Source of the DNA: Verrucomicrobiota bacterium
GTDB taxonomy: Bacteria; Verrucomicrobiota; Verrucomicrobiia; Chthoniobacterales; UBA10450
NCBI GenBank assembly: GCA_003220055.1
Contig: QHRF01000083.1
Location: 564 to 64,563 of the forward strand
Reading direction: 5' to 3'
Length of the DNA: 64,000 nucleotides
Part shown: positions 17,753 to 32,048 of the stretch, piece after piece
How positions within the stretch are numbered: the stretch's first letter is position 1
Layout of the letters: each line of letters begins with the position of its first letter
The notes under the pieces: model-generated
Told to the model about the DNA's origin: nothing
The model's database searches: none
What the model saw: the letters and a program-made list of their open reading frames with translations, nothing else
Translations under genes and position numbers: made by a program

Positions 17753-17764
17753 TGAATATCTCTT

Positions 17765-17788
17765 AGGAAAGCAGGAAAGCAGGAAAAG
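17765..17788 (+). repeat. Tandem octamer AGGAAAGC x2 plus AGGAAAAG directly upstream of the rdgB start
   Basis: aggaaagc aggaaagc aggaaaag aaa ATG(17792), in the 39-bp leuS/rdgB divergent spacer. Confidence 0.6.
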
Positions 17789-17791
17789 AAA

Positions 17792-22673: not shown

Positions 22674-24666
22674 CGTACTTGTCGATCAAAGCCTGGAAGC
22701 GCGGATCTTTGCGAATCGGATCCCAAATTGGATTCAACTTCAGGAGGGCAACCGTGACGGTGCTCGGCCGCTGCAATAATCCATCGAGCACGGGAACGGC
22801 GCCGGCCGCGTCTTCGAAGATAGCGTGAATCCTCGCCACGGCTTCCGTGATCGCCGGACCTTCAAAAGCATCTTTGCTTTCGGGTAACAACTCCTGGGCG
22901 CGTTTGATTTCACCGAGCGCCGCGTCCTTTTGTCCGAGCCACGCAAGCGCTTCGGCCAGCCCGGCGTGGGCAGACGCATCATCGGGCGTTTGCTTGATGT
23001 CGTCTTCCGCGAAACGCTTCGCTTTCTCGAGGGCTTCTCGCGCGCCGGCTCGATCGCCCATTGCCTTCTTCGCCGCTCCAATGATGGTGTATTTGCCGCA
23101 CAAAGAGCCGTGACGCGTTGTAAGCATCGCGTCCGGGAGCTTTTCCGCTACACCCACGGCCTCGCCAAACTTACGCTGCAAAATGAACATCTGCGCGCGC
23201 CCGGCCGTGATTTGGCCCTGGATCTCCGGACTCAGTTGGCTTGAATCGACATTGTTCAGGAATTTTTCACCGAGAGAGAGATCGCCCCTCTCTTCAATGG
23301 CAACCTTGCACTTGATCTCCATGAGACCGAATGCGGTGGGAGTGATCGCCAGCGCCCGTTCCAAAATCTTGCTCGCCGCATCCCACTTCCGTTGCATCTC
23401 GTAATTGATCGCGAGGTTTTGCATCGACCATGTGTCGTTCGGATTGAGACTGACGGCTTTTTCAAGGCTGGCGTTGGATTCCGTCCACTTGCCTTGGCGC
23501 CTTTGAATAGCGCCGAGCGCGAGATAGCCTTCCGATTCGTTAGGCAATCCTTTCTCGGCGATCTCAAATTCGCTCGCCGCAGCCTGGAAGTTGTTGTCGA
23601 CATAATAATAAACAAACCCGAGGGCCAGATGCGCCTCCGGCAACTGCGGCTGCAATTGGACCGCGCGCACGGCCAGGGAACGCGCTTTCTCCCGTCGGGG
23701 CGACGCGCGCTCAAACGAGTGAACGATCCAGCTTTCCAATTGGGAATACCGAGCAAACGCCAGGGCAAAGTTAGGATCGAGCGTGATCGCCCGCTCGTAC
23801 GCCTCCTCGCCCTGCTTTAATTTTCCCAAATCCTCATAGGAGCTGCTCTGAAGATCGTGCGCCCGGACAAATGCGAGATAAGCCTCGGCATTTTGGGTCG
23901 GTTTGCTCTCGATCTGCGCCTTTTCGCTCGGCGAAAGCTTTGCCTGAAGTTCGTTCGCGATCTTTTGGGCAAGATCGGTTTGAATGGCAAAGACGTCGGT
24001 CAAATCGCGGTCGTAGTCGCTGGCCCAGAGATGCTCGTCCGTCGTTGCGTCGATCAACTGCACATTAACGCGGACACGATTGCCGGCACGACGGACGCTG
24101 CCTTCCAAAATGGTCGAAACGCCCAGCGCTTTTCCGATTTCGCGCACGTTCGGCGTGTGCCCGCGATAGGACATCACCGATGTCCGTGAGATCACTTTCA
24201 AATCGCCGATCTTCGAGAGATTGGTCAGGATATCGTCCTGAACGCCATCCGCGAAATAGGCGTTCTCTTTTTCGTCGCTTAGACTTTCAAACGGCAGCAC
24301 TGCGATCGATTTGTCGATCTTGCGCGCGGCTGCGCGCGGGAGCAGGAAAAATCCGGCGGCGGCGGAAATAATAATGCCAGTGGCAACCAGCATGATCACG
24401 TTGCGACGGCGATGAGAGCCCGCCGTTACCACCGCTGGCGTTGTTTTTATGCCTTGAGACGTGACGTCGAAAGCCCAAGCCAGAATCAGCGCGATCGGGA
24501 AGCCGATCAGCAGCAACACGATGACCAAACGCAGCGACCAACTCGGCAATTCCCAGGCCGGAAACGCGGCCGAGGCGAGCTGAATGATGCCACCAGCGGC
24601 GATAACGTAGGCGACCGCCACACGGTAAACCTTCCGTCGCTTCACTTCCTCGAAGAAACCGCTCAT
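22660..24666 (-). CDS. Membrane-anchored TPR-repeat protein with a TolB-N-like periplasmic domain
   Basis: N-terminal FEEVKRRKVYRVAVAYVIAAGGIIQ plus a second TM. SIAVLPFESLSDEKENAYFADGVQDDILTNLSK module, then multiple TPR-like repeats. Confidence 0.75.
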   Translation of the reverse strand: MSGFFEEVKRRKVYRVAVAYVIAAGGIIQLASAAFPAWELPSWSLRLVIVLLLIGFPIALILAWAFDVTSQGIKTTPAVVTAGSHRRRNVIMLVATGIIISAAAGFFLLPRAAARKIDKSIAVLPFESLSDEKENAYFADGVQDDILTNLSKIGDLKVISRTSVMSYRGHTPNVREIGKALGVSTILEGSVRRAGNRVRVNVQLIDATTDEHLWASDYDRDLTDVFAIQTDLAQKIANELQAKLSPSEKAQIESKPTQNAEAYLAFVRAHDLQSSSYEDLGKLKQGEEAYERAITLDPNFALAFARYSQLESWIVHSFERASPRREKARSLAVRAVQLQPQLPEAHLALGFVYYYVDNNFQAAASEFEIAEKGLPNESEGYLALGAIQRRQGKWTESNASLEKAVSLNPNDTWSMQNLAINYEMQRKWDAASKILERALAITPTAFGLMEIKCKVAIEERGDLSLGEKFLNNVDSSQLSPEIQGQITAGRAQMFILQRKFGEAVGVAEKLPDAMLTTRHGSLCGKYTIIGAAKKAMGDRAGAREALEKAKRFAEDDIKQTPDDASAHAGLAEALAWLGQKDAALGEIKRAQELLPESKDAFEGPAITEAVARIHAIFEDAAGAVPVLDGLLQRPSTVTVALLKLNPIWDPIRKDPRFQALIDKYGAKA

Positions 24667-24730
24667 AGAACAAATTTCGGTTGATTATCGTTCAACGGCA
24701 ACGATTAGACAGACCAATTCAACGCCCCGT

Positions 24731-25666
24731 TCACTTAACACCGGTGGCGAAGACGGTCTGGAACTGAGGGTTCTCCTTTTCGCGCGAGACCACGCTCACT
24801 TCGATGTCGCGAAAGCCGCCTTTTTCCAAAAGCTCATGCAATTTCACTTCGCTAAAGCCTAACCAGCGGTCGGCATAAAGTTCGCGCGCTCTTTCGAAGC
24901 GATGACTCAACAAGTCGAGGACAACGACCCGGCCGTTCCTTTTCAAAATGCGGTGGGCCGCCTGGACCGCTCGCTCGGGCTTGATTGCGTGATGCAACGC
25001 CTGACTCAACAGGACAAGATCGACACTGCCCTTTGTAACCGGCGGATCTTCCAGATCACCCAGCCGATACTCGAGATTTTTGAAACCATGTTTCTTCGCC
25101 AGCTTCGAACCGAACTCGACCATCTTTGGCGAGTTGTCGATCGCGATAACTTTACGCGCGCTCTTCGCCAGCAACTGGGAGAGTGTTCCTTCGCCCGCGC
25201 CAAGATCGACAATCGTCAGCCGTGGAACGAGCGAGATCAATGCGTGCGAGAGCGCTTTCCACGATCGTCCCGGGACGTAACTGCGACCGAACTTCCCTGC
25301 CAGTTCATCGAAATATTCGCGCGCTTTGTCCTGACGCTTGCGCAACGCGAGTTTCAGCGCCGTCCGGTCGCGGCCGGTTTCGGGAATTTCACGCGCGAGT
25401 GTCTCGATCACTTGTTGGACGCGGCCGCGCGCGCCATTGCGTCCTGCGGTTTTAGTCGCGCCGTAGTAAACATTCTTGCCCGCCCGGCGGCCTGCCACTA
25501 CCCCGGCGCGCTTCAATTGTGCGAGATGACTGGAGATCCGCGATTGGCCCATGTTCAGAATCTGCTGCAGCTCGGCCACGGAAAGCTCTTCCTCTTCCAG
25601 CAAGAGCAGCAGTCGCAGCCGGGTCGGATCAGCCAGTAGCCGCAATAAATTAATGGTTGACGTCAT
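24731..25666 (-). CDS. ArsR-family HTH fused to a SAM-dependent-methyltransferase-like domain (SahR-like regulator candidate)
   Basis: LADPTRLRLLLLLEEEELSVAELQQILNMGQSRISSHLAQLKRAG (ArsR wHTH) plus VDLGAGEGTLSQLLAKSARKVIAIDNSPKMV (MTase motif I). Divergent from metK-ahcY. Confidence 0.75.
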   Translation of the reverse strand: MTSTINLLRLLADPTRLRLLLLLEEEELSVAELQQILNMGQSRISSHLAQLKRAGVVAGRRAGKNVYYGATKTAGRNGARGRVQQVIETLAREIPETGRDRTALKLALRKRQDKAREYFDELAGKFGRSYVPGRSWKALSHALISLVPRLTIVDLGAGEGTLSQLLAKSARKVIAIDNSPKMVEFGSKLAKKHGFKNLEYRLGDLEDPPVTKGSVDLVLLSQALHHAIKPERAVQAAHRILKRNGRVVVLDLLSHRFERARELYADRWLGFSEVKLHELLEKGGFRDIEVSVVSREKENPQFQTVFATGVK

Positions 25667-25735
25667 CAGCGGTCTGAGACGATATATCTACATATCATGA
25701 TCGGTCAATATGTTGCTGTCAGCTTGACTGTTTTT

Positions 25736-25763
25736 GCCACTCGTCACTAGTCACTCGTCACTT
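25736..25763 (+). promoter_or_regulatory. Four in-phase heptads GCCACTc GTCACTa GTCACTc GTCACTt ending 7 nt before the metK ATG
   Basis: Read directly from the sequence; repeat starts at 25736, 25743, 25750, 25757. A TTGACT -35-like hexamer lies at 25724-25729. Confidence 0.6.
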
Positions 25764-25769
25764 CCTGTT

Positions 25770-26972
25770 ATGTCACGTCGCTACGTTTTCTCTTCCGAAT
25801 CCGTTGGTGAAGGTCACCCCGACAAAGTTTGCGACACGATTTCGGATGCCGTTCTCGACGCCTGCATTAAACAAGATCGACGCAGTCGTGTTGCCTGCGA
25901 GACCTACGCCAAGAGCAATATCGTTGTCGTTGGCGGGGAGATCACGATTCCGAATCTGGCTGACGACAAACCGCTCGGCGCGGTTCTTCCAATCAACAAA
26001 ATCGTCCGTGAGACCGTGCGCGAGATCGGTTACGTAAACGACGATGACGTCTTTCACGCGGATAAGATCGACATCCAGAACATCATCACCAAACAATCGC
26101 CTGACATCGCCCAGGGCGTCGATGCGCGCGCAGCCGATGGCAAAGAAACGGCCGAACAGGGCGCGGGCGATCAGGGGTTGATGTTTGGTTACGCCTGCGA
26201 CGAAACGCCGGAGCTCATGCCGGCGCCGATCATGTTTGCGCATCGGCTCGGACGCGAGCTCACTCGCATTCGCAAGAGCGGAAAAGTCGGCTGGCTCCGA
26301 CCGGACGCGAAATCGCAGGTCTCAGTTATTTACGAAAATGGCCGACCGATCGGCATTTCCTGCGTTGTTGTTTCAACGCAACACTCCCGCGACGTCAAAC
26401 ATTCCGAAATCCGGAGCTTCGTGATCGAAGAAGTGATCAAAAAAGTTTTGCCGAAGGAAATGTTAAGCGAGAGCACGCAATTTCTGGTCAATCCCACCGG
26501 CAATTTCGTGGTTGGCGGACCGCAAGGCGACACTGGTCTGACCGGCCGCAAGATTATTGTCGATAGTTACGGCGGAATGGGACGCCACGGCGGCGGCGCA
26601 TTTTCCGGAAAAGATCCGAGCAAAGTCGATCGCAGCGCGGCTTACATGGGACGTTGGGTCGCGAAGAACGTGGTCGCGGCCGGACTGGCATCGAAATGCG
26701 AAGTACAGTTCGCCTACGCAATCGGTCATCCCAAACCGCTCAGCGTCCATGTTGACACGTTCTGCACCGGCAGCGTCGACGAAGAAGCGATCGAGCAGGC
26801 GGTGCTGCAGACATTCAGCTTTAAACCGGCCGACATTATCGATCAGCTCGATCTGCTCCGCCCGATTTACTCAAAGACGACGAACTACGGTCACTTCGGC
26901 AAAGTCGACGACCCTGAGATCACTTGGGAAAAAACTGACAAGGCCGCCGCGCTGAAAAAGGCGGCGAAATAA
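25770..26972 (+). CDS. metK: S-adenosylmethionine synthetase
   Basis: [60 protein letters not shown] at 25770; the TTG at 25734 lies inside the repeat array. Confidence 0.95.
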
Positions 26973-26976
26973 ATTT

Positions 26977-28404
26977 ATGATCAGCACGAAGACAAACACG
27001 AAACAGCATTTCAAAGTTAAAGACATCTCGTTGGCCGACTTTGGCCGGAAGGAAATTTCGATCGCGGAAAAGGAAATGCCCGGATTGATGGCGATCCGCG
27101 AAAAGTACGCACCCCAAAAACCGCTCGCCGGTGTGCGTATCACGGGTTCGCTCCACATGACGATTCAGACGGCGGTATTGATCGAAACACTGGTCGATCT
27201 TGGCGCGAGTGTGCGCTGGGCTTCGTGTAATATTTTTTCAACGCAAGATCACGCCGCCGCGGCGATCGCCAAGGCTGGCGTGTCGGTGTTCGCGTGGAAA
27301 GGCGAATCACTCGAGGAATATTGGTGGTCGACGTATCAGGCGATCTCGCATCCGGACGGGAAAGGTCCGCAGCTCATCGTGGATGACGGCGGTGACGCGA
27401 CGTTGCTAATCCACAAAGGTTACGAGCTTGAAGAGGGCAGCGATTGGGCGAAAACAAAATCGGAGAACAGGGAAGAACAGGTTATTAAGGATCTGCTGCT
27501 CGAGATCCAACGAGATAACCCGTATCGCTGGCACGAGATCGCGAAAGATTGGCGCGGCGTTTCGGAGGAAACGACCACTGGCGTGCATCGCCTTTACAAA
27601 ATGCATCAGGAAAACCGGCTCCTCGTTCCGGCGATCAACGTCAACGATTCCGTTACGAAATCGAAGTTCGACAATCTCTACGGCTGCCGGCATTCGCTAA
27701 TTGATGGGTTAAATCGCGCGCTCGATGTCATGGTCGCGGGCAAAGTCGCGGTCGTCTGCGGTTATGGCGATGTCGGCAAAGGCTGCGCCCAATCACTCCG
27801 CGGTCAGGGCGCGCGTGTGGTCATCACCGAGATCGATCCGATCAACGCGCTCCAGGCCGCGATGGAAGGTTACGAGGTCACCACCATCGAAGACACGCTC
27901 GGCCGCGGCGACATTTACATCAGCGCAACCGGCAACACCGACGTGATCACGTTCGAGCATATGCAGCGGATGAAAGATCAAGCTGTCGTCGCAAACATTG
28001 GTCACTTCGACAACGAAATTCAGGTCGACGCGCTCAACGCCGGCAAAGGCGTGAAGCGGACCAATATCAAACCGCAGGTCGATAAGTACACGTTCCCGGA
28101 CGGCCACGAAATTTTCCTACTCTCCGAGGGCCGGCTGGTGAACCTCGGCAACGCGACGGGTCATCCGAGCTTCGTCATGTCGAATTCGTTCTCGAACCAA
28201 GTGCTCGCTCAATTGGATCTCTGGAAAAATCGCGACACCTACAAGGTCGGCGTTTACGTCTTGTCGAAGAAGTTCGACGAAGAAGTCGCGCGCCTGCATT
28301 TGAAAAAAATCGGGGTCAAACTGACCAAGCTCAGCAAAGCACAAGCCGATTATCTCGGCGTGCCAATCGACGGTCCGTTTAAATCCGAGCACTACCGTTA
28401 TTGA
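26977..28404 (+). CDS. ahcY: Adenosylhomocysteinase
   Basis: 475 aa: [29 protein letters not shown] site [35 protein letters not shown]-terminal ...PFKSEHYRY. Confidence 0.95.
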
Positions 28405-28406
28405 CT

Positions 28407-28455
28407 TGTAGCCGACGACGCTGTCGTCGGCCCGCGGTCAACGACCGCGGCTACA
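28407..28455. repeat. REP-like double hairpin flanked by TGTAGC...GCTACA
   Basis: tgtagc CGACGAC-gct-GTCGTCG gc CCGCGGTC-aac-GACCGCGG ctaca, starting 3 nt after the ahcY stop. Confidence 0.7.
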
Positions 28456-28479
28456 GTGTTGTTCGACAGACTTTTCGCC

Positions 28480-28851
28480 TTACCAACGCGCTTCCTGCGC
28501 TTCGACTTGGGTGGCCTCCACGTAGTAACAGCCCGGCGCCTTGCCGCGCCGCCATCTGCCCAAGACTCGAACGCTGCGGCGGTCATGGACGGCATCCGTA
28601 AGAATTTTCGATTGCCGTATCGGCGCGGCGAGCGAGATCGATGTCGATCTTCCAGAGTGAAAAACAAACATGATTTGCGAGGCGCAGGATTCGCCCGGAT
28701 ATAAACTCACTTTCCCGATCTGATCGAACGACGCACCAACTGATGCCGCGCTGACGTTGGTCGTCGCCGGCCTTGGTTTTTCCGGTTCGCCGCAACTGGT
28801 CAACACAGATGCGATCGCAAGCAACCACGCCGAAGCCCAAAACGACTTCAT
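28480..28851 (-). CDS. Hypothetical lipoprotein
   Basis: MKSFWASAWLLAIASVLTSC lipobox. The ORF-track version (to 29223) overlaps the upstream gene in another frame, so it was trimmed to the ATG at 28851. Confidence 0.6.
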   Translation of the reverse strand: MKSFWASAWLLAIASVLTSCGEPEKPRPATTNVSAASVGASFDQIGKVSLYPGESCASQIMFVFHSGRSTSISLAAPIRQSKILTDAVHDRRSVRVLGRWRRGKAPGCYYVEATQVEAQEARW

Positions 28852-28855
28852 TTTG

Positions 28856-29401
28856 TTAATTGGATGCAGCGTCACGCTGCTCGACAAACTTTTCACCGTT
28901 CCAGGTAAACTTGTGGAGAACTTTTCCGCTCTTATGACTGCGGACGAGAATCGTGCGGCCTTGTCGCGGCAGCTCAAATTGCAAGTCTTCATATTTTGAT
29001 TCGTATTCGCCAGAACTCCACCTGTCGCCGATCGGAAAAACTCTTCGAGATGCTTTGTGCATCTTGCCGTCCGCTCCGAGCTCGAAAAAGTCCAGGGTGA
29101 CCGAATCATCCCCTTCAAGTTCACCGGAGCAAAGCGCGAGGAGCGAACGTCCGTCTCGATAACGAAACAGCGCGACCTGAAACGATGGCTGAGCTCCATC
29201 GCCGGCGATGCTGATGTAGCCATTTTGCCTGTCGATCACTTGCGCGTTGCCTAGCCAGGCGCGCGGCGGAGCTTCCAAAGTCTTGTCTGGCAGCAACAGA
29301 AAATAATCCACCACCGTCATTTTCTTTTCGTCCGCGGCGCCGAGCGCGAACGGGAGACAAAGACCGAGCGCCAGGACAACAAAGATCGACAGTCGTTTCA
29401 T
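28856..29401 (-). CDS. Hypothetical secreted protein
   Basis: Signal peptide MKRLSIFVVLALGLCLPFALGAADE. 181 aa with no recognisable motif. Confidence 0.65.
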   Translation of the reverse strand: MKRLSIFVVLALGLCLPFALGAADEKKMTVVDYFLLLPDKTLEAPPRAWLGNAQVIDRQNGYISIAGDGAQPSFQVALFRYRDGRSLLALCSGELEGDDSVTLDFFELGADGKMHKASRRVFPIGDRWSSGEYESKYEDLQFELPRQGRTILVRSHKSGKVLHKFTWNGEKFVEQRDAASN

Positions 29402-29428
29402 CTCAGCCGCGGACCGTGGCTGAACTTA

Positions 29429-30109
29429 TCAACTCACTGTCACGCTCACGGCGTCGCTCGGCTGGCCGATTTCTTTGCCGTTCATCACGGCGCGGGCGGT
29501 GTATTTGAGTTCGCTTTTGCCGGGCGACGTGTCGATCGCGGGTGTCCGGAAAAAGAAACCGACTTTTTGCGGAGATTTGTCGCCTTTGCCTTGGCGATAC
29601 AGATTGATCCCGGAAACGCCGCCACCGGCTTTACGGAACGGGATCGTGACAAAATTTCCGGTCTGGCGCGCGCGACCGAGCTCGGCCTTGTAATTCGCGG
29701 CCTCAAATTTTCCGATGTCGATTTTGAGTTTGTTGCCGATGTCTGTCGTGAACTTCGCGTGGGCTTTGATCCGTTCGACGCGCGCCTGCCGGCGCGTGTC
29801 GATTCCGGGCCGCACCGGAGTCGGCGCGCTCGCGCCCGCGGGAAGATCGACATAATCGCCGGAAGATTGTCCGCTTAGAACCGCATTTGCGGCATGACCG
29901 GGATCGGCATCGAGGTCGGGACCGAGCGTGGTTAAAATGTGCACGGCGTAGTTCGAATCGTTGACCGCGTTCGTGATCTCGGTTTCGCTGAATCCGAGAT
30001 CCTTTCCGGCTTTCGGAAACTCTTTGGCGAAATTGCTATACCAGTCGATGCGACCGGCTCGATCAGCAGGAAAATAGGATTTGCTCATACGTGGCAGAGG
30101 TGTTGCCAC
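29429..30109 (-). CDS. Hypothetical protein (beta-rich, Ig-like-looking C-terminal region)
   Basis: 226-aa ORF co-directional with the SET-domain gene. No motif recognised. Confidence 0.55.
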   Translation of the reverse strand: MATPLPRMSKSYFPADRAGRIDWYSNFAKEFPKAGKDLGFSETEITNAVNDSNYAVHILTTLGPDLDADPGHAANAVLSGQSSGDYVDLPAGASAPTPVRPGIDTRRQARVERIKAHAKFTTDIGNKLKIDIGKFEAANYKAELGRARQTGNFVTIPFRKAGGGVSGINLYRQGKGDKSPQKVGFFFRTPAIDTSPGKSELKYTARAVMNGKEIGQPSDAVSVTVS

Positions 30110-30136
30110 CTTGATAACGCCGTCGCACCGAACCGG

Positions 30137-30646
30137 TCAAGACTGCTTCGAGATCTTGCGTGCGAGATAAGCCGAGAAATAGCCGGCGTATTTCCTTTGC
30201 AATTCCGGCTTTTGCCAATCCTTGCCCGTCAGGACTTTCCGGCAGCTATTGGCGCCGCAATTGCATTCGACCGAGTAATCATCGTCATCGGTCATCGCCC
30301 AATCGTGGGTCAGTTCTTCGCCCGCGCGAATCTCACACATGGCGACGAACGTGATCTCACCGCGGAGACCAAGGTTCGGATCGCAGGAATGATTGCTATA
30401 CAACATCGACAATTCTCTTTCGACGGCATTCACCGGCGCGATGAACAAATTGTCGTCGATCTGGATTTCGACCGGCCCGAGGGTCGGCGTGATTTCGCGA
30501 CGCAAAGTTTCGCGGTCGACAATGTGCCCACCTTTCACGAGGACGACCTCGTCTTGGGCGATGTCTGCTTTGGCAAATAAACCGCGCCCATGGATTTTGC
30601 TCTCGCGCACTTCCGTTTTCAGTGAGCGATAAGACAGCGGTGTCAT
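30137..30646 (-). CDS. SET-domain protein (putative protein-lysine N-methyltransferase)
   Basis: KIHGRGLFA..., YSNHSCDPNLG, ELTHDW, post-SET-like CNCGANSCRK. The ATG at 30646 (MTPLSYR) is preferred; the longest ORF reaches 30667. Confidence 0.8.
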   Translation of the reverse strand: MTPLSYRSLKTEVRESKIHGRGLFAKADIAQDEVVLVKGGHIVDRETLRREITPTLGPVEIQIDDNLFIAPVNAVERELSMLYSNHSCDPNLGLRGEITFVAMCEIRAGEELTHDWAMTDDDDYSVECNCGANSCRKVLTGKDWQKPELQRKYAGYFSAYLARKISKQS

Positions 30647-30652
30647 TAGAGA

Positions 30653-30736
30653 AGTGACGAGCGACAACTGGCGAGTGACAAGAGAAAAAATTGCTGCTCT
30701 TCTTACTCGTCACTCATCGCATGTCACTGGTCACTA
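30653..30736. promoter_or_regulatory. Imperfect palindrome built from GTCACTn heptads, filling the SET/MFS divergent spacer
   Basis: Left arm AGTGACg AGCGACa ACTGGCg AGTGACa (30653-30680), 12-nt centre aaaaaattgctg (30685-30696), right arm CTTACTc GTCACTc ATCGCAt GTCACTg GTCACTa (30702-30736). The 11-mer CTCGTCACTTC (minus strand, 30661-30651) is identical to metK leader 25754-25764. Confidence 0.6.
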
Positions 30737-30740
30737 TCAA

Positions 30741-32048
30741 ATGAAGTCACGCCCGGCCGCGGTCGTTTTTATTTTCATCACCGTGATGCTCGACATGCTC
30801 GCGCTCGGTTTGATCGCTCCAGTGTTGCCGAAGCTGGTCCTGAGTTTCCTGAACAACGACATGACACGCGCGGCGAATTGGAATGGCATTTTTCTGACTG
30901 TATTCGCCGCGATGCAGTTTCTCTTTTCACCGGTGATCGGCGTTTTGTCCGATCGATTTGGCCGACGGCCGGTCCTTCTCCTTTCCAGCCTTGGCCTCGG
31001 TCTCGACTACATCGTCATGGCAGTCGCCCCCACCATTGGGTGGTTGTTTCTCGGTCGCATCATCTCCGGGATTACCGCTTCCAGCATTCCCACTGCCTTC
31101 GCTTACATCGCCGACGTAACTCCAAAAGAAAAGCGCGCCGGCGCCTTTGGCATGATTGGCGCAGCGTTTGGTATCGGTTTCACGCTGGGGCCGGCAATCG
31201 GTGGATTGGTGGGAAACACGAATCCGCGGCTGGCATTTTGGGTGGCCGCAGGTTTCAGTCTGACCAACTGGCTCTACGGGTTTCTCTTCGTCCCGGAATC
31301 ACTCGCGCCCGAGAAGCGAAAGGAATTCTCGTTAGGCCGCGCCAATCCAGTCGGCTCGCTCGTTTTACTGCGCTCACATCCGGATTTGTGGAAACTCGCT
31401 ACGATTCAATTTCTCGCCTACGTCTCACATGAAATTTTCGCCATCTGGGCGCTCTACGCCATTTATCGTTTTGGCTGGGATGCGTGGAGCATCGCCAAGT
31501 CGCTCTTTGTCGTCGGCGTCTGCACTGCGGTGATCTCCGGCGGATTGACGGGACGAGTTGTGGCCTGGTTGGGCGAGAAGCGCACTCTTTACATCGGCCA
31601 GTTTTTTGGCGCCGTCGGCATGCTCATCGCCGGTCTCGCCCGAAGCGGCGCCGTTTACGTGGCGTCAATCCCGGTCATTTCGATGTGGAACATTTCCTTT
31701 CCCGCCGCCCAGGGAATCATGACGCACCATGTGAGCGAGCGCGAACAAGGCGAGTTGCAAGGCGCCATCGGCAGTTTGCGCTCGATCGCGTTCGTCATCG
31801 GACCATTTCTATTTTCATGGACGTTTGCCTGGTTCATCGATCCGAAACATTCGTTTCAATTGCCCGCCGCCGGGTATTATCTCGCAGCCGCATTGCTGTT
31901 CACCGCGATGTTCATGGCGACGCGTATCAAACAACCGCAATTTGCCGCGGCATCGACGGTGTCCCCCGGCGTTCCCGACGTCGTGCCTCCGGAAGGCCTG
32001 ACTTCAGGCACCGTCGCGCCAATGATCGAGCCCAAAGAAAACATTTGA
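30741..32048 (+). CDS. MFS transporter (TetA/drug:H+ antiporter-like)
   Basis: 12-TM-type protein with an MFS motif-A-like GVLSDRFGRRPVLLLS. ATG at 30741 (MKSRPAAVVFIF). Confidence 0.85.
   Translation: MKSRPAAVVFIFITVMLDMLALGLIAPVLPKLVLSFLNNDMTRAANWNGIFLTVFAAMQFLFSPVIGVLSDRFGRRPVLLLSSLGLGLDYIVMAVAPTIGWLFLGRIISGITASSIPTAFAYIADVTPKEKRAGAFGMIGAAFGIGFTLGPAIGGLVGNTNPRLAFWVAAGFSLTNWLYGFLFVPESLAPEKRKEFSLGRANPVGSLVLLRSHPDLWKLATIQFLAYVSHEIFAIWALYAIYRFGWDAWSIAKSLFVVGVCTAVISGGLTGRVVAWLGEKRTLYIGQFFGAVGMLIAGLARSGAVYVASIPVISMWNISFPAAQGIMTHHVSEREQGELQGAIGSLRSIAFVIGPFLFSWTFAWFIDPKHSFQLPAAGYYLAAALLFTAMFMATRIKQPQFAAASTVSPGVPDVVPPEGLTSGTVAPMIEPKENI

Follow-up and report, generated by a model that had tools for sequence, protein, structure and literature searches.

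Immediately upstream of metK, in a 64,000-nucleotide (nt) stretch of contig QHRF01000083.1 from an uncultured, Udaeobacter-like soil verrucomicrobium of the order Chthoniobacterales (the whole stretch is referred to here as the window), lies an array of four in-phase GTCACTn heptads. We tentatively read this array as a transcribed, unstructured tandem-heptad leader that lacks a Shine-Dalgarno (SD) sequence and would act at translation initiation. A role of the RNA at initiation is suggested by the strand bias of such arrays, their locking to the start codon at three genes, the lack of an SD sequence or of folded structure, intercistronic spacers that are filled with arrays, and a depletion of G that persists while the repeat unit itself is replaced. 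In the proposed mechanism, the array would form the body of a short SD-less 5′ leader and be read on the sense strand as RNA. The four G-poor heptads would take the usual position of the SD sequence, end 4 to 6 nt before the AUG, and offer the 30S subunit an unstructured, C/U/A-rich landing region; a single-strand-binding factor whose footprint spans ∼7 nt, for example, S1 or a cold-shock-domain OB fold, might also use them as a platform. Cold-shock domains bind heptanucleotides, and a 7-nt period would suit single-strand binders of the OB-fold type. The array would then be the local, clade-specific form of a wider habit of soil lineages, that of building leaders and spacers from tandem units of 7 to 8 nt.

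The metK array reads GCCACTC (25736-25742), GTCACTA (25743-25749), GTCACTC (25750-25756), and GTCACTT (25757-25763) on the plus strand and is followed by the pyrimidine-rich spacer CCTGTT (25764-25769), without an SD sequence, and the metK ATG at 25770. These units had been reported by an earlier reading made from the sequence only, and direct reading bears them out; its statement that they end 7 nt before the ATG holds when counted from the last GTCACT hexamer, but the distance from the last heptad is 6 nt. Tandem Repeats Finder assigned the array a period of 7 and 3.6 copies. The core RTCAC is on the sense strand, and G and C make up 12% and 40% of the array (25736-25763), respectively. Apart from the 9-nt palindrome GTCACTAGT, the heptads are direct repeats. 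A TTGACT hexamer (25724-25729) lies 6 nt 5′ of the array.

The sequence-only reading also noted that the 11-mer CTCGTCACTTC recurs near the start of a SET-domain gene and the 10-mer ACTCGTCACT upstream of an MFS transporter gene. Both recurrences were found, the former exact at 30651-30661 on the minus strand and the latter at 30705-30714, and both proved to be parts of two further complete four-unit arrays that had been missed. The SET array runs on the minus strand from 30679 to 30652 (GTCACTC, GCCAGTT, GTCGCTC, GTCACTT), followed by CTCTA and the ATG at 30646-30644; the MFS array occupies 30709-30736 on the plus strand (GTCACTC, ATCGCAT, GTCACTG, GTCACTA), followed by TCAA and the ATG at 30741. 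These two arrays share the 94-nt SET-MFS intergenic region. All three comprise four in-phase units on the sense strand of their own gene and end 4 to 6 nt before the ATG, with start codons that agree with the public gene calls, and no further four-unit in-phase array of this type was found elsewhere in the window. The pattern GTCACTNGTCACT, which represents two consecutive units with at most one mismatch, had five matches in the window versus 0.04 expected, and none of 100 shuffled sequences reached five; the heptads are thus nonrandom.

Within the clade of the window, the metK array appears to be under purifying selection, judging from an alignment of 19 sequences. Mean pairwise identity was 0.79 across the array (25736-25763) and 0.52 at 4-fold sites of metK. 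It was 0.48 in the spacer before the ATG and 0.36 both in the 12 nt proximal to the divergent regulator gene (here called sahR) and in the 8-nt segment between a conserved palindromic box (see below) and the CTTGA that precedes the array. The best-kept positions of the unit are T2, C3, A4, and C5, and the best-kept units are the second (GTCACTA) and the last (RTCACTT). The expectation of the sequence-only reading that close relatives would carry the array upstream of metK is thus borne out, with conservation well above that of neutral sites. Conservation and the three arrays together support its proposal of a nonrandom cis element common to metK, SET, and MFS: the SET array is kept in seven clade genomes, and the MFS array is kept in L208, L216, L224, and L255. 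The number of units at metK is four in every clade sequence, and the array is identical in seven population sequences (the window and six contigs from different samples). Given this stability of copy number, without polymorphism in the seven population sequences, we rejected a phase-variable contingency locus. Among relatives, indels of 1 to 2 nt occur within and after the array, and the length of the spacer varies by 1 to 2 nt. These indels argue against an N-terminal extension of MetK from the TTG at 25734; moreover, Pfam coverage begins at residue 5 of the ATG product, and public calls use the ATG.

The arrays were then counted, as at least three in-phase RTCAC units, in 160 Chthoniobacterales loci plus the window (∼0.7 Mb). 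All 29 arrays found were sense oriented, with the last TCAC 6 to 15 nt before the start of metK, SET, or MFS, and none lay inside genes or at other intergenic sites in this sample. Arrays are therefore clustered just 5′ of start codons rather than scattered, the outcome that the sequence-only reading had proposed to look for. When genomes were matched across the two locus sets, six had arrays at both metK and SET, three at metK only, one at SET only, and 21 at neither. This association is confounded by phylogeny, since all array-bearing genomes form one clade. The SET-only genome (DASYVQ01) has a TTTCTAC array at metK and GTCACT at SET.

Orthologous metK leaders were compared in the 80 loci closest to the regulator in a species-level genome collection (75 to 97% protein identity), all from Chthoniobacterales/Spartobacteria except one mislabeled bin. 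Heptads precede metK in ∼19 of the 80 sahR-metK loci, that is, in the clade of the window and in L155, whose units are AATCACT, TATCACT, and AATCACT. Other loci carry other tandem units at the same position (ATCACT, CTGAACC, 8-mers of the TTYAACG type, TTTCTAC), often with an inverted copy array further upstream. Irrespective of the unit, the last 35 nt of 76 orthologous leaders have a mean G content of 0.10 and a mean C content of 0.34. By sequence comparison, the orthologous leader appears to keep its architecture (tandem 7- to 8-mers, 10% G, no SD sequence) while the unit is swapped. We rejected the idea of a single unit per genome, and with it one trans factor, because the metK and X/ahcY spacers of one contig differ in unit, as do the metK and SET arrays of DASYVQ01.

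The gene X of these spacers lies between metK and ahcY in several Chthoniobacterales (L148, 660-1220; L182, 690-1260; L197, 730-1260; L204, 680-1230; also L198, L203, and L157) and encodes a four-helix-bundle protein of ∼120 to 130 amino acids belonging to TIGR02436, the "23S rRNA intervening sequence protein" family. On either side of it, the intercistronic spacer is filled by inverted heptad or octad arrays, whose unit varies by lineage and switches on both flanks together. Because the arrays occupy the entire spacers within the metK-X-ahcY operon, they leave no room for a promoter. Gene X and its flanking arrays resemble an intervening sequence-like stem with the gene in the loop, and a homolog in Ignavibacteria (L011, 5113-5588) is likewise flanked by ATCACT heptad arrays.

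Two further elements were observed at orthologous positions. A sublineage without arrays (L150, L158, L162, L184, L185, L194, L201, and others) has a single AACGAATCAC(G/T)T motif at approximately −16 from the metK ATG, and RTCAC occurs between −40 and −1 in 16 of 58 nonclade metK loci, versus 5.9 expected, with the reverse complement in one. An older single element of this kind may have given rise to the heptad unit. Most Udaeobacter-type genomes that lack heptads have, ∼50 nt upstream of the SET start, a conserved CAACGCGTTGAGGACAACGCGTTCCACC element that holds two AACGCGTT palindromes (L212, L214, L219, L220, L226, L228, and others) and is possibly the site of a different regulator.

The leader itself shows neither an SD sequence nor a selected fold. 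SD-like motifs precede 4 of 19 publicly called genes around the locus and none of the three array genes. Shuffled versions of the metK leader (25713-25830) tend to be more structured than the leader itself (z = +1.36 for the leader), and 185 of 200 fold at least as well. In other lineages with two inverted arrays before metK, folding is weaker for the sense than for the antisense RNA in 34 of 39 loci; since base composition explains this difference, it gives no evidence for a selected mRNA hairpin, and we rejected a functional hairpin in these longer leaders. Pairing of the heptads with the 3′ tail of 16S rRNA was also discarded, as no complementarity was evident to the canonical tail, the host's own rRNA not having been compared. 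An Rfam scan of 24000-32000 returned no family at an E value of ≤1 and hence no known riboswitch for S-adenosylmethionine (SAM) or S-adenosylhomocysteine (SAH), in agreement with the sequence-only reading, which had seen no room for a known SAM riboswitch in the leader.

That reading had also placed a −35 element at TTGACT and the −10 element inside the array. This arrangement is disfavored, because the distance from TTGAYT to a conserved TAG/TAA inside the array varies among relatives (15, 18, or 21 nt); in addition, no sigma-70-like site was found on the plus strand. A leaderless mRNA with GTCACT as the −10 element was rejected on sequence grounds, since the hexamer, at −12 to −7 of SET, does not have the A that a sigma-70 −10 element requires at position 2. 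A weak candidate metK promoter lies within the palindromic box, with TCTACA (25687-25692), a 16-nt spacer, and TATGTT (25709-25714; TATGAT in some lineages) giving 8 of 12 matches. If used, it would start transcription near 25721 and place the whole array in the 5′ untranslated region (UTR), and a SahR-type repressor could then act on both divergent promoters from one site.

The box bears on the identity of the metK regulator. The divergent gene (24731-25666, minus strand) encodes an ArsR-type helix-turn-helix (HTH_5; E value, 2.7e−13) and a C-terminal SAM-methyltransferase-like domain (Methyltransf_11; E value, 9e−22) and lies beside metK and ahcY. By this architecture and context, the features on which its likeness to the characterized Desulfovibrio SahR rests, we consider the product SahR-like. 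SahR is an SAH-responsive repressor of the ArsR family with a core regulon of sahR, ahcY, metK, metH, and metF, for which Leyn et al. (2014, PMC4239095) published a palindromic motif of 20 bp. A conserved box, GATATATCTACATATCATGATCGGTCAATATG (25681-25712, within a conserved block at 25679-25714), is present in 80 of 80 orthologous sahR-metK loci with the consensus CGATATATC[T/G]AC[A/G]TATCATGAT[C/T]GGTCAATATG. It forms an imperfect palindrome whose 16-nt arms (25684-25699 and 25696-25711) are 75% complementary, has a pairwise identity of 0.96 in the clade, is single copy in the window, lies 25 nt upstream of the metK array, and overlaps a minus-strand, sigma-70-like promoter of sahR (TTGACC-18-TATCGT).

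The sequence-only reading had proposed that the heptads are a cooperative operator of this adjacent ArsR-methyltransferase protein. In its favor, the regulator is next door, known relatives control metK and ahcY (PMC4239095), and the array lies in the shared intergenic region. The locus matches the SahR regulon in architecture, in context, in a box of the 20-bp-palindrome type, and in core members (sahR, metK, ahcY). The heptads, however, are direct repeats unrelated in sequence to that box, are missing or exchanged for other units in the majority of genomes that have both the regulator and the box (heptads in ∼19 of 80 loci, the box in 80 of 80), and precede SET and MFS without any copy of the box. 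We therefore regard the proposal as extremely unlikely, and neither the protein nor the DNA-operator mechanism that it named has found support. The box at 25681-25712 is the likely candidate SahR operator, and SAH control of metK-ahcY transcription would more likely be exerted through it.

Arrays of the GTCACT unit are not confined to the order. An exact three-unit pattern matched at least 120 loci in the species-level collection, those listed falling mainly in Pyrinomonadaceae, Blastocatellia, Terriglobia, Chloroflexota, and phyla of the FCB group, with other Verrucomicrobia also present. A typical form outside the order is cTTGCTC (GTCACTY)3-5 GTTCTT ATG. Among the matches listed, arrays of up to seven units had the start codon of a long open reading frame (ORF) 0 to 14 nt downstream in the sense orientation in 27 of 102 cases and in the antisense orientation in 7 of 102, with a modal distance to ATG starts of 6 nt. 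Eighteen of 20 scanned ORFs downstream match Pfam domains, typically from the N terminus, with functions that include MutS2, RNase HII, CysS, RecG, TsaE, SDR, enoyl-CoA hydratase, M20 peptidase, and EutN, and no SAM theme was apparent among the 20. A small SAM-related regulon, as envisaged by the sequence-only reading, is therefore not a general property of the motif, which stands before unrelated housekeeping genes in Acidobacteria and other phyla, and metK and SET are only partly coupled; within the clade, the arrays are possibly a shared cis element of three neighboring, partly SAM-related genes.

The closest described counterpart is the TAACTGA repeat of marine Beggiatoaceae, Cyanobacteria, and Bacteroidetes, which occurs in two to six forward copies a few nt before start codons, where SD sequences are rare; its function is unknown, and S1, Csp, or CsrA has been proposed as the binder (MacGregor 2015, PMC4679880). 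Put through the identical pipeline, TAACTGA arrays of three units were start proximal in the sense orientation in 28 of 99 cases and in the antisense orientation in none, so that ∼27 to 28% of arrays are start proximal and sense for both units. Because these same-pipeline counts reproduce the published description, we place the GTCACT arrays in the same phenomenological class. Both are tandem, forward 7-nt units close to start codons, without SD sequences, before diverse genes and patchily distributed across phyla, and the window fits the description with direct 7-nt repeats at a copy number within the range of two to six, in several sets (three four-unit arrays in 64 kb), 4 to 6 nt before the ATG. 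The unit differs, being RTCACY plus one variable base, as do the modal distance (5 to 6 nt here versus ∼1 nt) and the hosts (soil Verrucomicrobia and Acidobacteria here). Purifying selection and unit replacement at an orthologous gene are described here and not in the earlier report (PMC4679880). TAACTGA arrays were also seen in L339 (QHMY01, Verrucomicrobia AV89; Chthoniobacterales) and in L310, L341, and L366 (Pyrinomonadaceae), lineages that thus contain both kinds of array.

Period-7 arrays as a class extend well beyond these two units. In 445 kb of Chthoniobacterales sequence, periods 7 and 8 accounted for 28 and 25 arrays, versus 5 and 8 for periods 6 and 9, and 836 kb of GTCACT-selected loci held 394 period-7 arrays, with dozens of different units across the sampled loci. 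Sixty-four adjacent arrays form inverted pairs, 58 of them with the G-rich arm first, on either strand. The pairs mostly start directly after a stop codon (12 between convergent, 11 between codirectional, and none between divergent genes) and are common in Pyrinomonadaceae and other soil metagenome-assembled genomes (MAGs) (loci L007 to L126; for example, L080, 3519-3585; L083, 6127-6204; L125, 1394-1462). In appearance, they recall terminators or REPIN elements made up of tandem heptads.

Several observations weigh against a simple unstructured leader. The conservation of TCAC is sequence specific and goes beyond what a merely unstructured, G-poor leader would require, which implies a sequence reader. 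The SET and MFS arrays can pair with each other (−38 kcal/mol on the plus strand, −43 kcal/mol on the minus strand), a hairpin that does not fit a purely unstructured leader, although both arms would be in the SET or the MFS transcript only if that transcript started inside the other gene. The placement of the metK array in the 5′ UTR depends on the weak promoter guess (TCTACA-16-TATGTT). The strand bias within the clade is statistically thin, as only three independent sites underlie it. Among the matches listed from outside the order, a start codon is near in only 9 of 62 unpaired GTCACT arrays, versus 23 of 40 arrays with an inverted partner upstream, and the inverted pairs after stop codons make the class heterogeneous.

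At the DNA level, the strongest rival is an operator at which a repressor that is not SahR would bind in tandem, placed between promoter and ATG of a few genes. Its model is the ribbon-helix-helix (RHH) protein omega (ParB of pSM19035), one dimer of which would occupy each 7-bp heptad. Omega binds contiguous 5′-WATCACW-3′ units over promoters and needs at least four of them to be fully active (PMC9499535), and the arrays here are likewise contiguous, promoter proximal, and four units long, with a nearly identical ATCAC/GTCAC core (RTCACY; AATCACT, TATCACT, and AATCACT in L155). The sequence-specific constraint on TCAC, the restriction of arrays within the order to three neighboring genes, and the co-occurrence of the metK and SET arrays in one clade fit such a repressor as well. 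However, a repressor needs neither strict sense orientation nor a fixed distance of 4 to 8 nt to the start codon. Omega operators are of mixed direct and inverted orientation, comprise 7 to 10 units, and belong to a Firmicute plasmid with a known RHH binder, whereas the arrays here are purely direct, 29 of 29 in the sense orientation, locked to start codons, and chromosomal. The analysis yielded no candidate protein, although it did not include a search for RHH genes. In addition, the GTCACT unit precedes unrelated genes in other phyla, the unit turns over at orthologous metK leaders, and the many different units in one genome would demand as many such proteins. We thus consider a DNA operator unlikely.

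Another explanation would be that the arrays are by-products of replication slippage or palindromic repeats, G poor, free of starts and stops, and tolerated as harmless without a function of their own. In many genomes, long simple-sequence repeats are most commonly heptanucleotide repeats, according to Mrazek et al. (2007, cited in PMC4679880). The sampled loci contain period-7 arrays by the hundreds, built from dozens of units, the units turn over at orthologous sites, and the inverted pairs are of uniform polarity and mostly sit beside stop codons. Slippage would not readily account for an array whose position, copy number, and TCAC core are kept in 19 species in which neutral sites are near saturation, for the lack of copy-number polymorphism in the population sequences, or for the fixed distance to the ATG at three genes, and we judge it rather unlikely for the arrays studied here. 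Like the arrays of the window, the cyanobacterial short tandemly repeated repetitive (STRR) sequences and related long simple-sequence repeats are intergenic tandem heptanucleotide arrays, but they are described (Mrazek 2007, cited in PMC4679880) as 6 to 40 units long, variable in copy number, and not tied to start codons. Scytonema (GTCACTG)n matches were among those listed in our scan.

Two other readings keep the function in the RNA. In one, leader-peptide control would operate through an upstream ORF (uORF) of 7 to 9 codons, running from the (T/C)TG of CTTGA (25724) to the TAG/TAA at 25748-25750; in the window, this is a candidate 8-codon TTG...TAG frame (25724-25750, plus strand), weakly indicated, whose translation through heptads 1 and 2 would set the delivery of ribosomes to the metK AUG 19 nt downstream. 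Of 19 clade sequences, 17 preserve the frame, with indels of 3 or 6 nt inside it and of 1 to 2 nt downstream of the stop, and the stop is lost in the two sequences whose indels are not multiples of 3; the SET and MFS arrays, too, are traversed by small ORFs, whose stops overlap the main starts (TAATG and ATGA). Such ORFs arise easily, though, because the arrays are nearly stop free in all frames. Moreover, the start codon is TTG, or CTG in three species, without an SD sequence; the peptide shows little conservation; support for the frame comes from only two independent 3n indels; and L211, L232, and L255 do not preserve the SET uORF. We regard this control as very unlikely. In the other reading, a multimeric regulator of the TRAP/HutP or cold-shock-domain type, with a 7-nt footprint, would recognize the (GUCACUN)4 RNA sequence specifically and, from an SD-less initiation region, cocontrol translation of metK-ahcY, SET, and the efflux-type transporter. 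We give it a small chance; if true, it would add a posttranscriptional SAM-related regulon on top of SahR transcriptional control, and lineages would use different heptad "codes" for equivalent factors.

The (G/U)AG triplet repeats of TRAP and the UAG repeats of HutP are the sites of oligomeric RNA-binding regulators in Bacillus. They resemble the present arrays as periodic short motifs on the sense RNA over the initiation regions of a few pathway or transporter genes, but motif and period differ, the arrays here also stand before unrelated genes in other phyla, and no TRAP- or HutP-like protein was identified. The met boxes of MetJ, to which the sequence-only reading had likened the array, have an 8-bp period and the consensus AGACGTCT, are gammaproteobacterial, and keep no set position relative to the start codon. 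The motif of MetJ is a tandem repeat (PMC4239095), and both systems place tandem short boxes 5′ of methionine/SAM genes; the arrays here differ in their period of 7 and in a sequence unrelated to AGACGTCT.

If the heptads act as an SD-less leader, they touch on a wider problem: how ribosomes locate start codons when SD sequences are lacking is still open for much of bacterial diversity, including soil lineages that are abundant but for the most part uncultured (for example, Udaeobacter-like Verrucomicrobia and Pyrinomonadaceae). To our knowledge, start-codon-proximal heptamer repeats have been described once, as the TAACTGA repeats in 2015, and have never been explained; a literature search with the exact words of the present repeat retrieved no publication. 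The present comparisons add a second unit, in new phyla, and evidence of purifying selection on the unit within a clade, and together with the unit swap at an orthologous leader they make the heptamer-leader question experimentally approachable. They also correct the regulatory map of the locus, in which SAH-responsive control of metK-ahcY should be assigned to the box at 25681-25712 and away from the heptads.

The local gene order is a TPR protein gene, the ArsR-methyltransferase gene (minus strand; assignment from Pfam, NCBIfam, and the literature), metK, ahcY, three hypothetical genes, SET (minus strand), and MFS. The gene metK (25770-26972, plus strand; Pfam MetK) and ahcY (26977-28404, plus strand; Pfam AdoHcyase), both in the public gene calls, form a SAM-cycle operon behind the leader (25770-28404). 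The SET-domain gene occupies 30137-30646 on the minus strand (Pfam SET; E value, 4e−11). The MFS gene (30741-32048, plus strand; Pfam) encodes a Tet(A)-like transporter whose best likeness is to Tet(A)/(B)/(C)-family efflux pumps (E value, 8e−87), well under the family cutoff; we regard it as a generic DHA1-type exporter and not as an identified resistance gene. The regulator gene is identical on contigs of several soil metagenomes and in the MAG GCA_003219585.1. Two loci labeled otherwise, L160 (DATHHW01, Pyrinomonadaceae) and L248 (JBLMXH01, Nitrospirota), have sahR-metK and SET loci arranged nearly as in Chthoniobacterales, with 75 to 78% protein identity, and these labels probably reflect binning contamination of those MAGs. 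Elsewhere in the window, the start codons of the divergent leuS (minus strand) and Ham1-like (plus strand) genes lie 39 nt apart (17753-17791); the gap holds an 8-nt tandem array (17765-17786) that reads CTTTCCTG ×2.8 on the leuS sense strand and, on the Ham1 strand, the SD-like AGGAAAGC.

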